64,000 nucleotides of DNA from a virus: the IMG/VR virus record IMGVR_UViG_3300028840_006907, positions 1 through 64,000 of that record, one strand, 5' to 3'. Of the stretch, positions 2,575 through 54,702 are shown piece after piece (position 1 is the stretch's first letter; every line of letters begins with the position of its first letter). The position numbers and the translations under genes are program-made. The notes beneath the pieces are model-generated. The model was not told the origin of the DNA. It ran no database searches and saw only the letters and a list, made by a program, of their open reading frames with translations.

Positions 2575-3170
2575 AAATTGTAAATTCCTTCTAGTATTTC
2601 AGCTTTTGTTAATTTTATTCTTGAAGTAGACGGTATAACTGAATCCACTTCTTCTATTACTTCACTTAAATTTAAATTTAAAATATTTGTAATATGAATA
2701 TCAAAGTGTCTCGCTAGAGCTGTCGCGTAACTTGTCCCTCCTATATCTGGGCTATAACATAATACGATTCGGCTTAATTCATGTACGGGATCTGTATGTC
2801 CAATAATCTGATTTACATTACGTTCCATTAATAATTGCACACCACGTTCCATTTCTTGATAAGGTTTTCTGGCAACAAGATCGCACATAAATTCAGCTAT
2901 TTCTTTTTCTCGTTCAGGAATAATAGCATTGCCGATAACTTCCATCCCTGGATCATTCTTATAGGGTCTAATCCCATAAGTTTTCCAAGGTAGGTAGATA
3001 TCGGCAAAACCGTTTGCACCCTTTTCACAGGCTCTATCGGCTCCTACAGCGTGCCCACTACGTAATTTCAATTTGTAGGTATCTACAATAAATCTGCTAA
3101 CATTTTCAAGAATATTTAAATATTTTTCTGGAGTATTACGGCTACCGATTCCTGTAAAAAAACCATCCAT
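2571..3170 (-). CDS. DprA/SLOG-like Rossmann-fold protein
   Basis: FTGIGSRNTP and RSGHAVGADRACEKGA resemble DprA/Smf-SLOG nucleotide-binding motifs; 4-nt overlap with MTase gene. Confidence 0.45.
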   Translation of the reverse strand: MDGFFTGIGSRNTPEKYLNILENVSRFIVDTYKLKLRSGHAVGADRACEKGANGFADIYLPWKTYGIRPYKNDPGMEVIGNAIIPEREKEIAEFMCDLVARKPYQEMERGVQLLMERNVNQIIGHTDPVHELSRIVLCYSPDIGGTSYATALARHFDIHITNILNLNLSEVIEEVDSVIPSTSRIKLTKAEILEGIYNL

Positions 3171-23279: not shown

Positions 23280-23499
23280 TTATTGTACCTTCTAAAGAAA
23301 TATGTGAATTGAATCCTTTAGAGAAATATTGTGCTGGGTTAAATTTAAAAATTGCTATTCCTCCTATTGCCACAAGAAAAATAAAGAGAATGATTCTCCC
23401 GATCTTTCTTGGCAATTCTTTTCTTCGACGTTTAGCCATAAAATCTTTTTCATTTATTTTCATTATTATCCTCATTATTATCCTCATTATTATCCTCAT
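23269..23499 (-). CDS. small membrane protein with N-terminal (MRII)n repeat
   Basis: 12-nt tandem repeat encodes MRIIMRIIMRIIM; then basic stretch and TM helix; start set to first ATG. Confidence 0.35.
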   Translation of the reverse strand: MRIIMRIIMRIIMKINEKDFMAKRRRKELPRKIGRIILFIFLVAIGGIAIFKFNPAQYFSKGFNSHISLEGTINEK

Positions 23500-23508
23500 T
23501 ATTATTAA
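23461..23508. repeat. 12-bp tandem repeat, about 4 copies
   Basis: cattattatcct x3 plus one degenerate copy. Confidence 0.9.
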
Positions 23509-35238: not shown

Positions 35239-35740
35239 TATATATACCCAATTACCTTTTTTATCCAGTAATATAACATTTTAATACTATCAAATACCAA
35301 CGTCCTATATGGTGCGTCCGTATTAATCTCTATTAAATCAGTCGTCCTATATCTTTAAACTATGGTCTATATAGTAATAAACACGATCTATAAATCAAAT
35401 AACAATTTTAAGGTAATCCTCTTACTCATCAATATCCATATCTTTATAATAAAAAACCCACACATAGCACCTATAAAAATGTGGAACCCTTTAAGGCATT
35501 TCTTAAGTAACTATGTATGGGCACTGAAAGGGATTTATACAAATCCCATTATTATCTTAATATATTAACTTACTATATGTCTATACCTATAAACATATCC
35601 CCCTATATATTACTAATTAGTAATATGAATGTAATTATCCCTATCCCCTATATCTAATAACCTATAAACTATCCATTAAGTATATCTGTATCCTATCCAT
35701 ATAATAACTCTGTAAGAGAAAATTAATATGTATCAGTATG

Positions 35741-35890
35741 CCCATTACCTTGAATAGAATAATGAGTAAGTCAGTACCAGGAACTATACCATCATGAACT
35801 ATGAACTCGGAACTATGTCAGGGAAAACTTGAGTACTTACCCATTACCTTGAATAGAATAATGGGTAAGTCAATACCAGGAACTATGTCG
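35741..35890. repeat. about 48-bp direct repeat x2 (period 99 bp), each with internal inverted repeat
   Basis: cccattaccttgaatagaataatg(a/g)gtaagtca(g/a)taccaggaactat at 35741 and 35840. Confidence 0.85.
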
Positions 35891-36057
35891 GGAATTTCCA
35901 ACGAGTATTTTGAAAAAATTTATTCTCCCTGCAAAACCCGGAACCGATTTCCTAGTTCCTACAATCATATATTAATAATCTTTTGTTATCTGTATAAGTA
36001 AATTTACACAGGGTAATTGACTGATCAAAGTAAGTTAATGTCTTCCCAAACCGAGTC

Positions 36058-36141
36058 TTTGACTTGGGGAAATTGGTTGTTGACTGTAGAGAAGAATAAT
36101 TTCACTTGCTCATTTGGGTATTTGACTTGGGGAAACTGGTT
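36058..36141. repeat. 21-bp direct repeat x2 (period 63 bp)
   Basis: tttgacttggggaaa(t/c)tggtt at 36058 and 36121. Confidence 0.85.
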
Positions 36142-36511
36142 CCCGACTATCAAAAGTGGGGTTAAAAACGAGGGGGGTTACCCCTAAATTTGATATTTCC
36201 AGACTGGGAACTCAGACAGGGGCGATTCCAGACTGTTTCTGGCCAGACTGGGGGAAAGACCTAAGACGGTCTTAGTCCACTCATCCAAGACCATTGCCAT
36301 TTATCTGATCCGTAGCTCCAGACCTGGAATGACTTGGATAGAATTTTATATGTTACTGCCAGACAGAAAATGATCTTTGAGTCTCCACGTCCCAGGATTT
36401 CCTGGACACCGTGTAATCCACGGAACTCTAGGCTATCGGCTGATTTAATTTCGTTCTGAACTTCTATGGGAAGTTCATTCATGTTTATTTGATCTATACT
36501 TGTGATATGCA

Positions 36512-50908: not shown

Positions 50909-51517
50909 TTAGTTATAGCGAGTTATTCCGTCACTGGATTCAAAATCCATTGCGAGTATGGTATATAATTCCGTTTCCTGTGTATTAATTGTGTCTGGAT
51001 TGACTTGTCTGGAATATCCATCACTGCTTTCAAAATCCATTGCGAGTGAAGCAAATTCATTTGATATGGTTACAAGCGAGTTAACTGGTTGAATTTCAAC
51101 GATTTCAGTCTGGGTTTGGACTTCTTTAATACATTCATCCATTAAACTATTTAGAGTATCTAAGTCGGTAGTTTTTACGAAGGTTTCCCAGTCCTCTTTG
51201 GACATATTAAAATATTCTCGTACGACTTCGAGTTTATCTATATCTGTTATAGTTTTTACTTTGTTCCCGTTTTGCCAAATACTTTTAGCTTTATTAGTAT
51301 ATATAATCTCGCCTGTAAAGTTATGGTTGAAATTTAACCAGCGAGTCTCGTTATTTACTGACGGGTCAATGACTTCAGCGAGTTTATTACCAAAACGGTT
51401 TATACGATAACGGCCAGTACATTGAACGTTTATCCATTCACGAATTGTTTTTCTTGCGGTTTGGTTTGTGCCATTAATAACAGCACCAATTAATTTATCG
51501 TTCATTAGTATAGACAT
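50909..51517 (-). CDS. hypothetical protein with duplicated C-terminal LAMDFESSDG motif
   Basis: First gene of the leftward array next to the control hub; about 35-nt DNA direct repeat inside its 3' end. Confidence 0.5.
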   Translation of the reverse strand: MSILMNDKLIGAVINGTNQTARKTIREWINVQCTGRYRINRFGNKLAEVIDPSVNNETRWLNFNHNFTGEIIYTNKAKSIWQNGNKVKTITDIDKLEVVREYFNMSKEDWETFVKTTDLDTLNSLMDECIKEVQTQTEIVEIQPVNSLVTISNEFASLAMDFESSDGYSRQVNPDTINTQETELYTILAMDFESSDGITRYN

Positions 51518-51572
51518 AATATTTCCCCTTGTCTAATGTATATATTAACAGTCAATTATTTTTTTCTGTTGT

Positions 51573-51940
51573 CATGAATAATGAAAAAAGTTTAGTAACT
51601 TTCCGAAGTTTTAAGAAACTTTTTCTTTGACGTTTGTTTTTTGTGGCTTTCATGAGTAATGAAAAAAGTTTAGTAACTTTCCGAAGTTTTAAAAATTTTT
51701 TCTTTCATGTAAACTTTTCCTTGTCTACATGAGTAATGAAAAAAGTTTAGTAACTTTCCGAAGTTTTAAAAATTTTTTCTTTCATGTAAACTTTTCCTTG
51801 TCTACATGAGTAATGAAATTAGTTTGGTAACTTTCCGAAGTTTTAAAAATTTTTTCTTTCATGTAAACTTTTCCTTGTCTACATGAGTAATGAAATTAGT
51901 TTGGTAACTTTCCGGAAAAAATTGTAAAAACGCTATTTTC
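51573..51940. repeat. 77-bp tandem direct repeats, about 4.4 copies
   Basis: Units begin at 51573 (degenerate), 51651, 51728, 51805, 51882 (partial). Confidence 0.95.
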
Positions 51941-52312
51941 CTTTATATAGGGGAGAGCCAGAAATCGCCCGTTTGATGTGCGTGATATATACGCCCGAAA
52001 ATGTTCCCGGTTCTAACCCCCCAGTGAAATACCCTTTCCACAAAAGTGAAATACCCCAATACAACTATACCATACCCGACCATACCCCACCCCCGGGACC
52101 TGTCTTCGGGATCATCATCATGCGCTTGCTTTTCGTGCGCTCAATGCCATACCCACCCCCTTTTTGTAAAGATTTTTGGAAGTTGGAAATGGATGGAGTT
52201 AGATTGGATTTTTTGGATGGTAGAAAATTTTGGCTGGTGGGAGAGACCCCACAGTAAAGTACCCGGTTGGTTCAGGGAAGTACCAATATGGTTCAGTGGA
52301 GTGTCTTTTTTG

Positions 52313-52370
52313 TGGCGCATATCCTGTTATAGTGGCGCATATTCTATTATAATGGCGCATATTTCAGTTC
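52313..52370. repeat. three direct GTGGCGCATAT boxes at about 20-bp spacing
   Basis: gtggcgcatatcctgttata / gtggcgcatattctattata / atggcgcatatttcagttca. Confidence 0.9.
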
Positions 52371-52397
52371 AAAGCTCTCAGAACCCAGTTCAAAGAA

Positions 52398-52628
52398 CAG
52401 GGAACAGGGAACTGAGCACAGGGAACTGAGCACAGGGAACCGAGCACAGGGAACCGAGCACAGGGAACTGAGCACAGGGAACTGAGCACAGGGAACTGAG
52501 CACAGGGAACCGAGCACAGGGAACCGAGCACAGGGAACTGAGCACAGGGAACCGAGCACAGGGAACTGAGAACAGGGAACCGAGCACAGGGAACTGAGAA
52601 CAGGGAACTGAGAACAGGGAACCGAGCA
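52398..52628. repeat. 14-bp tandem repeat array, 16 copies, GC-rich
   Basis: CAGGGAAC(T/C)GAGCA with T/C and C/A variants; partial copy then units from 52405. Confidence 0.95.
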
Positions 52629-52872
52629 CCTGTATCTGTGATCTCGGAAAAGTTTCGGGAAAAAAATCGGGAACGGCTCAGGGCTGAGAAATAGGTATGA
52701 ATTTTTTTGGGGTATAATTTTTGGAGTTAAACAGTTGGGGAAATTGGAGTTATCTTATGTGAGGTGATGGGATAGTTTATGGAGGGTGAAAATTTTTTGG
52801 TATAGTTTGATGGAGAAACAGGTATAATACTTATAGGACGGAAAAATTTAAGTCTAATGGTTCGAGGATCTT

Positions 52873-53064
52873 GTGAAGAAGAACACAAAGCGTAAATTAA
52901 ATAAATTGATAGCATTTTGCAAGGATGAGGGGATGGACATAAGTGCGGATGGTGGTTTAATTTATGTCACGGTAGGAAATGGTCGGATGAATGAGGAGGT
53001 TTGGTGTGAGAAGGCTATCAGTGGTTTTTCGGAGGTTGGTGATTTTGGTTTTAACGAGGATTAA
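52873..53064 (+). CDS. hypothetical protein, first gene of rightward array
   Basis: 63-aa ORF; GGTATAAT box about 40 nt upstream. Confidence 0.45.
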   Translation: MKKNTKRKLNKLIAFCKDEGMDISADGGLIYVTVGNGRMNEEVWCEKAISGFSEVGDFGFNED

Positions 53065-53095
53065 AACCTATTAACATTAAACAATTGAGGTAGTT

Positions 53096-53815
53096 ATGAA
53101 CAATAAGATGTATTTAAACAGTTTTATAGATGCATTGAAGGTTTTATCAGTAGGGACTCTTGATAATTATAAGGAGGAGTTTACTGTGGGATTACCTTTG
53201 GACCCGGAGATATTTAAGGAGGTCATACGGAATGGAGTTATGGCTATTCGTGATGGGTCTCATTTTTTTCTTCGTGACATTAAGAAGGTTCGGATTAGGG
53301 ATATGCCGAATGAGTTGCATGAGATTCCAGATCTTTTCACGATATCTTATAAGGCTGATGTTTTTAATGATGAGTTAGTGAAGGAGGATGTTGAGGCTCA
53401 TACTTTGGTGGTTCGTAGATTATCAGATTTGGCATATTCTGTTGTATTGTGGGCATCTCAGGATTTGGAGGTATGGCAACCTATACCTATTTATAATGTT
53501 GTAAATTTTGATGCTGACTTTAATGTTGAAGATGGGGCGTTGCCTTATAGTTATTGGGCGCATGAGTGTTTTTTAAATGGTCAGGGTGATATGATGATTC
53601 GCCAATTACCGTTTGAGAAATTGAATGAAGATCAGGTTGAATATTTAAATCAAACTTATTTATTCCCGATTTTATTTGAGTTATTTCTTGGATTTTGGAA
53701 CAAGTATCCCAGGCTTAGCTTTAAGGATCAGGTTTTACGAAATCGGACGTTGGTACATGATGAGGAGGGTGATGTTTTTTCATTGGATTGGATAAAATAC
53801 AAGGAGATAGTATGA
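53096..53815 (+). CDS. hypothetical protein
   Basis: 239-aa ORF. Confidence 0.55.
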   Translation: MNNKMYLNSFIDALKVLSVGTLDNYKEEFTVGLPLDPEIFKEVIRNGVMAIRDGSHFFLRDIKKVRIRDMPNELHEIPDLFTISYKADVFNDELVKEDVEAHTLVVRRLSDLAYSVVLWASQDLEVWQPIPIYNVVNFDADFNVEDGALPYSYWAHECFLNGQGDMMIRQLPFEKLNEDQVEYLNQTYLFPILFELFLGFWNKYPRLSFKDQVLRNRTLVHDEEGDVFSLDWIKYKEIV

Positions 53816-54702
53816 AAAATTTACGTGAGATGAAAGATATCCCGGAGGTCATGTATCGGAAGTCGCGTGAAGCGATTTGGTATGACATGAGTCAAGGGGG
53901 GGAATTATTTAATCGGTGTTATGTTTGTGGTCATCATAAGGATGATATGGAGACGTGTACTCATTTTATAAGGGGTATTGAGAATGAGATAGATATTAAG
54001 GAAGTGGCGTCTTGGTTTAATCAACCACCTGAGGTCATAGAGGACCGCGTGATTAATAACACGTTTATTTTACCGTATAATGCAACAAAGGGAGTTGAAT
54101 ATTTACCGGTGAAATATCATGGTGAAAATATAGCGGTATTTCCGATTTGTGGTGGGTGTCAGGCACTTATGCGTATACCTTTTGCAACTGAAGCAGATGT
54201 AATCAAAATGAAGGAGATGAACATGGATAGAGCGATAATAATGACAGGTAAGGCGGTAGAAACTGGTGATATAAACGAGAAGAAGTGTTGTTATTTATGT
54301 GGAAGGCCGGAGGGATCTGACAGTCTTTCGGTTCCTTATAATAAGAGGACTGAGGAGACGTTATTAGCGAAAATTACCTTACGGATGGTGACCTTTAATA
54401 CATCTGAAGAGATGAATATAAAATTTAAGTATTTGGTATGCCCGGAGTGTGAGATTTTATTGGGGGTATCTCCTCGGATCTTTATGAGTCATGATGGTGG
54501 TCATTTAAATGAAGATCATGATCCGTTTGATCTTACTGAATTAAACAATGGGATTCAGGCGATTTTAAATGGCAATATTTCTCCGACATTACAGGCAAAG
54601 GTTTTGGAATACATAAAGGCAGCGGGTCCTGAGTTTTTCATTAATGAGATTTTAACTATTACCAGTAAGAAGAGGAAGAGGAAGAAGAAAAATGGCAAAT
54701 AA
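53788..54702 (+). CDS. Cys-rich protein with several CxxC pairs
   Basis: CYVCGHH, CGGCQ, CCYLCG, CPECE; true start possibly an internal Met near 53812. Confidence 0.5.
   Translation: MDKIQGDSMKNLREMKDIPEVMYRKSREAIWYDMSQGGELFNRCYVCGHHKDDMETCTHFIRGIENEIDIKEVASWFNQPPEVIEDRVINNTFILPYNATKGVEYLPVKYHGENIAVFPICGGCQALMRIPFATEADVIKMKEMNMDRAIIMTGKAVETGDINEKKCCYLCGRPEGSDSLSVPYNKRTEETLLAKITLRMVTFNTSEEMNIKFKYLVCPECEILLGVSPRIFMSHDGGHLNEDHDPFDLTELNNGIQAILNGNISPTLQAKVLEYIKAAGPEFFINEILTITSKKRKRKKKNGK

Follow-up and report, generated by a model that had tools for sequence, protein, structure and literature searches.

A short direct repeat in a repeat-packed noncoding hub, the probable origin or maintenance region of a giant uncultivated element

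Introduction

Iteron origins are built from short direct repeats, as in the phage lambda ori (four ∼ 19-bp O-protein sites), P1 oriR, R6K, RK2, pPS10 and pSC101 (17–22-bp iterons, ∼ 22-bp pitch). Partition centromeres may also be made of repeats: pSK41 parC has four of 20 bp, R1 parC ten of 11 bp, and tubC uses a 12-bp unit. Both iterons and centromere repeats co-evolve with the protein that binds them, keeping their place while their sequence changes. Near the ends of the T7 genome, series of short repeats are involved in terminase recognition or end processing.

Two published studies are also pertinent. Small repeat arrays occur at the GC-skew inflection of complete bacterial and phage genomes (Chen et al., 2020; PMC7111523). 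The tandem repeats of Borgs are fast-evolving, perfect and scattered genome-wide, and include a 20-nt intergenic unit (Schoelmerich et al., 2023; PMC9879509).

Here we describe a short direct repeat, and the noncoding region around it, in a viral metagenome record (IMG/VR IMGVR_UViG_3300028840_006907, positions 1–64,000; this whole 64-kb stretch is referred to as the window). The original prediction saw three phased 11-bp boxes and took them for sites of cooperative binding by a dimeric regulator or initiator.

Results

A noncoding hub between divergent gene arms

A noncoding hub of ∼ 1.6 kb contains the boxes; it is the only large noncoding gap between arms that are transcribed away from it. 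Left of the hub nearly all genes are on the minus strand, over at least 51 kb, and right of it they are on the plus strand, over at least 11 kb. The hub makes up 2.5% of the window, yet holds 52% of its tandem-repeat bases; the repeats are thus a local property and not a genome-wide one. At least five families of direct repeats are present, namely the 77-bp unit (4.4 copies), AGTGAAATACCC (two copies), a 21-bp pair at 52252–52293, the 20-bp boxes and ACAGGGAACYGAGC (16 copies). The boxes are the smallest of these families. By TRF the hub units match at 90–93%, i.e. they are imperfect. The features are listed below, with the strand where one is assigned; L numbers denote loci compared with the window.

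51518–53095: noncoding hub, from the last minus-strand gene (50909–51517) to the first long plus-strand gene (53096–53815)
51573–51914: AT-rich 77-bp tandem array, 4.4 copies, one imperfect ∼ 60-nt hairpin per unit
51918–51979: conserved unique core A, AAATTGTAAAAACGCTATT...GCCAGAAATCGCCCGTTTGATG, found in L004, L007, L009 and L011
52023–52160: variable zone 1, C-rich on the plus strand, with AGTGAAATACCC twice at 22-bp pitch and the CCATACCC family
52100–52170: local GC-skew flip from negative to positive, in noncoding DNA ∼ 150 bp left of the boxes; L007 and L009 have it at the equivalent place
52298–52310: left anchor GGAGTGTCTTTTT, abutting box 1; identical in L007 (1518–1530), GTGGAGT at this place in L009
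52312–52331, plus strand: box unit 1, GTGGCGCATAT followed by CCTGTTATA; a complete 20-bp unit
52332–52351, plus strand: box unit 2, GTGGCGCATAT followed by TCTATTATA; a complete 20-bp unit
52352–52363, plus strand: box unit 3, partial, ATGGCGCATATT, with unrelated sequence after it
52365–52395, plus strand: linker, CAGTTCAAAG twice at 21-bp pitch, a partial complement of the 14-mer unit
52404–52629, plus strand: 14-bp array, ACAGGGAACYGAGC in 16 copies; a single L009-type unit, ACCTGTATCTGT, comes next (52628–52639)
52676–52687: right anchor GCTCAGGGCTGA, identical in L007 and L009
52823–52828, plus strand: probable right-arm promoter, TATAAT in GTATAATA, assigned by reading; conserved in the window, L007 and L009

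The cumulative GC skew has its minimum within the hub. The left arm has negative skew and the right arm values of +0.27 to +0.35; the change of sign, completed within ∼ 70 bp (52100–52170), has the polarity of an origin. The two arms are unequal in magnitude (about -0.07 vs +0.4 in relatives). In L007 and L009 the flip persists across a 150-aa gene on the opposite strand, and the asymmetry is therefore not purely a coding-strand effect. AT-rich DNA is found near the boxes, in the 77-bp array (25% GC) 400 bp to the left and in a T-tract zone (52160–52235). No DnaA-box-like sites were found in the hub.

The window is a piece of something much larger. Contigs that carry a hub-flanking gene measure 388,651 and 469,617 bp, and the 388-kb contig (L001) starts inside a 77-bp unit, from which we estimate a genome of at least ∼ 440–470 kb. 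Neither the hub nor the surrounding 24 kb had a megablast match among GenBank phages. The recognisable genes encode a DNA methyltransferase, a DprA-like protein, an AAA ATPase, DUF3150 and DUF932 proteins, an FtsK-like protein and a PAPS-reductase-like protein, with homologs in phages and plasmids that are distant (best < 33% identity). No tRNAs were found and no structural genes were seen in the window. Since the homologs are only distant and occur in both phages and plasmids, we speak of a giant phage- or plasmid-like element. Its hub is probably a replication origin or a maintenance control region, possibly one for partition, an assignment for which skew and gene orientation were read from 64 kb of a genome of at least 470 kb.

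Two other places in the window were noted for their repeats. At 35240–36260, ∼ 1 kb without convincing ORFs contains a 47-nt repeat (two copies, 99-bp spacing), a 31-nt repeat (two to three copies), CCAGACTG (three to four copies) and motifs of the GGAAC/GGGAAC type; the skew jumps there from -0.435 (34–36 kb) to ∼ 0 (36–38 kb), and its sequence is no more like the hub 14-mer than expected by chance. The other place, 23460–23505, is a perfect tandem repeat of the 12-bp unit TCATTATTATCC (3.8 copies), in which three DnaA-box-like 9-mers, TTATCCTCA, recur every 12 bp. Two minus-strand genes flank it, unless it belongs to the 5′ end of a small ORF, and the skew does not change there.

The box repeat

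Direct reading of the sequence places GTGGCGCATAT at 52312–52322 and 52332–52342, and ATGGCGCATAT at 52352–52362. The exact core common to all three boxes is the 10-mer TGGCGCATAT, which starts at 52313, 52333 and 52353, a pitch of exactly 20 bp; TRF reports a period of 20, 2.5 copies, 90% matches and a score of 81. The three copies and their 20-bp pitch are thus as originally described. The exact common core is 10 bp rather than 11, copy 3 starting with A and not G, and the ttata tail said to follow each box is present after copies 1 and 2 only, copy 3 continuing as TTCAGTTCAAAG, which is unrelated to the other tails. The position just upstream of the 14-bp array was given correctly; the array (52404–52629) begins 41 bp to the right. 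Unit 2 differs from unit 1 by two substitutions, neither within the core, and all three substitutions among the units lie outside the 10 nt. By our own estimate, such sparing has P ∼ 0.06 under neutrality, which is a weak indication.

The box repeat is real and far beyond chance. A 10-mer occurring three times at a fixed pitch of 15–30 bp was seen in none of 200 simulated windows (second-order Markov), and in the real window only the boxes and the adjacent 14-bp array have this property. Nor are the boxes an assembly artefact, since an independently assembled JGI contig of 388,651 bp (L001) matches the window without a difference across 8,024 bases that include them.

Further copies were expected by the original prediction, in particular near promoters, and their absence was to count against it. 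TGGCGCATAT has no further exact copy in the whole 64-kb window, the 8-mer GCGCATAT does not occur there outside the boxes, and no relative contains additional copies. Nor are the boxes close to a promoter: the conserved -10 element of the right arm is ∼ 470 bp away and the left-arm gene ∼ 800 bp. The core has no dyad symmetry beyond GCGC, so that a symmetric dimer on each box is not indicated, and the boxes are direct repeats; the dimeric binder of the original prediction is not supported. The argument that a spacing near two helical turns puts the boxes on one face of the DNA is weak, because duplicating a 20-bp unit in tandem gives a 20-bp pitch automatically, and because the periods of the repeats in the hub and its relatives (10, 12, 13–14, 18, 20, 21, 22, 24 and 31 bp) share no helical phase.

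Searches outside the window returned look-alikes that we reject. The single box-pair match in viral contigs (L002) is an unrelated GC-rich phage and is ascribed to chance. A permissive metagenome scan for box pairs (8–12-bp gap) gave, among the matches listed, four multi-copy loci (L018, L026, L053 and L072), none of them related: these are 20-bp satellites or repeats in which the core resembles GCGCATAT, and they have neither the hub core nor the 14-mer. In L026 (ERZ791734 NODE-92, 151,573 bp), positions 2965–3065 comprise five to six contiguous 20-bp direct repeats of the CATACTGACGCATATCATGA type with a GCGCATAT-like core. These resemble iterons, with no sign of homology to the window.

Relatives of the hub and turnover of its arrays

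The genes adjoining the hub are near-orphans. A DUF932 gene 3.5 kb away has homologs at 58–75% identity in metagenome contigs, and the relatives were reached through it; four were compared (L004, L007, L009 and L011; 67–75% identity in the DUF932 protein). In these relatives the hub likewise lies upstream of the corresponding gene block, with conserved unique blocks in the same order as in the window and differing arrays in matching zones. Read from the gene block, the order is long AT-rich repeats, core A, a variable zone, a middle block, the left anchor, variable zone 2 and the right anchor.

Core A (∼ 60 bp; search sequence GCCAGAAATCGCCCGTTT) is the best-conserved noncoding sequence of the hub, with sub-blocks 83–100% identical in the four relatives (L004 490–545, L007 2027–2087, L009 2183–2242, L011 116–176). 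For a functional core of the region, this block is a better candidate than the boxes. The long arrays by the gene block consist of 77-bp units in L011 (7.7 copies), 78-bp units in L004 (1.8) and L009 (1.9) and 111-bp units in L007 (2.1), a range of 1.8 to 7.7 copies across the relatives. Folded as single-stranded DNA, the 77-bp units of the window form an imperfect ∼ 60-nt hairpin (z -2.8 and -2.3); those of L011 (163–751), the nearest of the relatives, have a different sequence and a like fold (z -1.9 and -2.3). Such tandem hairpin units beside the first left-arm gene could be cruciform-forming, terminator-like or promoter-bearing. The arrays of zone 1 also differ in the relatives, where they are of a GTATGGG type or have units of 31 bp (3.7 copies), 13/14 bp (8.4 copies) or 24 bp (2.6 copies).

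None of the relatives contains the box sequence. In the window, the three boxes, the linker and the 14-bp array occupy the interval bounded by the two anchors; this interval holds 26 AT-rich bases and a 10-bp array of the TCTACCAGGG type in L007, and only a 6/12/18-bp array in L009. The slot of the boxes is thus filled by 26 unrelated AT-rich bases in L007 and by none in L009. The position of the boxes is not retained in related replicons; the neighbouring short-period array is retained with changed units. The window keeps an L009-type unit (ACCTGTATCTGT) at the edge of its array, which indicates rapid birth and replacement of units. The zone-2 short arrays (window 52404–52639, L007 1388–1490, L009 1552–1734) have different units and periods, and a shared quasi-palindromic core, CAG-N3/4-CTG, is suggestive. 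The T/C variants of the 14-mer in the window are themselves ordered (TTCC TTTCC ...), a higher-order pattern suggestive of duplicated blocks. Sites resembling the 14-mer outside the hub (6 found vs ∼ 4 expected by chance) are not significant.

Gene content at the hub edge is fluid. L007 (812–1267) and L009 (943–1386) have inside the hub a conserved 150-aa gene without a family match, with a perfect hairpin terminator at its end; the window is without it. Conversely, the window has ∼ 1.6 kb of extra genes at 52873–54702, with ORFs of 239 and 304 aa (the latter Cys-rich), ahead of the gene that it shares with L007 and L009 (54692–54919). At least six independent contigs end in the hub or at its edge (the JGI 388-kb contig L001, L004, L005, L011, L135 and L136), probably through assembly breakage at the long tandem arrays.

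Probing IMG/VR with the flanking proteins gave no relatives, and the patterns of core A and the right anchor had no matches in the viral and GTDB genome collections. Neither the protein of the left flank nor the DUF932 protein encoded in the window was on record as an exact sequence. The 239-aa protein of the right flank has only one distant homolog, on a 2.8-kb contig that lacks the intergenic region. This clade of giant elements is absent from the viral and genome collections searched.

Flanking proteins

The flanking proteins have no match in Pfam or PHROG; no Rep, DnaA, Par or HTH family was recognised among the flanking genes, and no ParA, ParM, TubZ or adaptor gene lies within ∼ 4 kb on either side. 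The regulator or initiator gene that might have been expected beside the boxes is accordingly not identifiable among the flanking genes. AlphaFold models of two flanking proteins were unusable (pLDDT 33 and 54). The first left-arm gene (50909–51517, minus strand) encodes a protein without a family match (homologs P0124–P0127). The relatives share an invariant C-terminal motif, A-x-DFESSD-x3-R, that occurs in duplicate in the window's protein (LAMDFESSDG twice).

Discussion

The reading we favour, tentatively, is that the boxes are iteron-like binding sites for a protein, newly arisen within an origin or maintenance hub. A local duplication would recently have created the 2.5-copy 20-bp direct repeat inside a hypervariable zone, and the boxes would act as duplex-DNA landing sites in the manner of iterons. 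A sequence-specific protein encoded by the element may bind the invariant 10-nt core head to tail, roughly on one helix face and perhaps cooperatively, and the bound boxes together with the adjacent 14-bp array of 16 units might then help to build a higher-order nucleoprotein complex. This reading draws on the origin polarity, position and repeat density of the hub, and on the analogy with repeats that co-evolve with their binder, since the arrays hold their place and change their sequence. The boxes show no single-strand structure whichever strand is folded (z +0.6 to +0.8), as would suit sites that work as duplex DNA. With a unit of 20 bp and about three copies, the boxes fall within the classical iteron length range of 17–22 bp. 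The initiator or regulator of the original prediction thus retains a suitable setting (a noncoding, repeat-packed hub between divergent arms, with a conserved skew switch), whereas its specific claims are not supported.

The main alternative, possible if on the unlikely side, is that the boxes are a neutral young duplication, produced by replication slippage or unequal exchange and devoid of a function of their own, in a hub that may still function. There are only 2.5 copies at 90% identity, the third of them partial, and the boxes are missing in both relatives that span the slot (L007 and L009). Every array of the hub differs among the relatives, and a relic L009-type unit stands beside the 14-bp array. 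In addition, the AT-rich tail of the box resembles the single-copy sequence of L007 at the slot (minus strand, TATAATAGAAT vs TAAAATAGACT), which fits duplication of a pre-existing sequence, and Borgs have fast-evolving, lineage-specific intergenic tandem repeats that include a 20-nt unit (PMC9879509). Against a neutral origin, the repeats concentrate in the hub instead of being spread genome-wide, and the relatives keep arrays in matching zones, suggesting maintained multi-copy sites; the sparing of the 10-nt core by all three substitutions argues weakly in the same direction. Copy number and substitutions (2.5 and three) cannot separate a selected core from a young neutral duplication. As far as the sequence goes, nothing indicates selection on the boxes themselves, which are missing in every relative.

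A role in transcriptional control, with the boxes as operators or as tandem promoter elements serving the two divergent arms, we consider improbable. The hub does lie between divergently transcribed arms, and the box tails read TGTTATAGT and TATTATAAT, resembling an extended -10 element and a -10 element, with TGnTATAGT and TATAAT in the tails of units 1 and 2; similar motifs (GTATAAT, GTATAGT) occur further right. However, a consensus scan found no σ70 promoter or terminator at the boxes and gave one promoter-like site in the region vs 5.4 in shuffles. The nearest plus-strand ORF is ∼ 510 bp away and the nearest minus-strand gene ∼ 800 bp, and in L007 and L009 the terminator hairpin insulates the zone from the neighbouring gene. 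A conserved -10-like element, GTATAATA (52823), lies ∼ 470 bp downstream of the boxes; its TATAAT, which precedes the first plus-strand ORF (52873) by ∼ 45 bp, was not flagged by the consensus promoter scan. A σ54 -24/-12 reading of the box (TGGCGC-N5-CTGT) was also considered and rejected, the invariant GC of -12 being missing by our own reading.

That the hub is a concatemer junction, either a pac/cos site or the boundary of a terminal repeat whose short repeats serve terminase recognition or end processing, seems very unlikely. Two observations would agree with it, namely that six or more independent contigs end in the hub or at its edge and that genes are transcribed inward from the hub point on both sides, but the contigs end in or beside the long tandem arrays, as in repeat-induced assembly breaks, and none of them ends at the boxes. 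Moreover, the window, L007 and L009 have the hub in their interior, and no terminase or structural genes were identified near it. Transcription of the boxes and array into a functional RNA, e.g. a protein sponge, is extremely doubtful: the region 52240–52700 folds as RNA with z = -2.1 and Borg intergenic tandem repeats have been proposed as regulatory RNAs (PMC9879509), but the fold signal is linker–array pairing that leaves the boxes unstructured, no promoter or terminator was detected, the array units vary in sequence and period among relatives, and Rfam had no match at E ≤ 1 in 51000–53500 and none at the gathering score in the whole window.

Returning to iteron-like sites, a bolder and rather unlikely extension would make the hub a modular origin and incompatibility region of a previously undescribed clade of elements of at least 470 kb. 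The conserved scaffold would offer slots in which arrays arise, expand and are replaced, and the boxes would be a new iteron family caught at 2.5 copies. If this is true, replacement of an array would switch the binding specificity between lineages, and the TGGCGCATAT boxes would be a natural snapshot of the origin of an iteron. The conserved blocks that alternate with fast-replaced arrays would suit the study of how iterons and centromere repeats arise and change specificity, and core A with the anchors provides a marker for recognising relatives. If the hub is an origin or maintenance region, it also offers a handle on the replication of a very large, uncultivated and almost wholly unannotated element. 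The boxes alone add little to this, being one small lineage-specific repeat with putative binding only; the hub is the more interesting object.

Comparison with known systems

The noncoding hub array lies exactly at the cumulative-skew minimum, like the small arrays of Chen et al. (2020; PMC7111523). Those arrays are a general finding from complete genomes, whereas the present case is 64 kb of a genome of at least 470 kb, with no dnaA nearby. There is also a likeness to Borgs (PMC9879509): in both, a giant AT-rich element carries recent, lineage-specific tandem repeats that vary between relatives, the units are not multiples of three, and assemblies break at the repeats. In contrast to Borgs, the units here are imperfect (90–93%) and cluster in a single hub, the architecture of which the relatives share.

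Partition centromeres share with the hub the head-to-tail arrangement of short repeats (20 bp in 2.5 copies beside 14 bp in 16 copies). The 20-bp unit matches that of pSK41 parC, and a small DNA-binding adaptor could coat the 14-bp array. Unlike such centromeres, the repeats have no ParA, ParM, TubZ or adaptor gene within ∼ 4 kb and no recognisable overlap with a par promoter. Iteron origins resemble the boxes in having at least three direct repeats of ∼ 20 bp, about two helical turns, each with a core that is invariant and a spacer that varies; the boxes are likewise noncoding and lineage-specific and lie at a switch of skew and gene orientation, with AT-rich DNA nearby as a possible unwinding element. 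They differ in that there is no recognisable Rep- or O-type gene adjacent and no DnaA box, in their 2.5 copies, and in being one of at least five repeat families in a hub whose role in replication is putative. Because initiator and partition genes were not found and the position is not conserved in relatives, membership in either the iteron or the pSK41 parC family cannot be claimed. In kind the boxes are familiar, and they are best classed with the short direct repeats of putative origin or maintenance regions, of which they are a new, lineage-specific instance.
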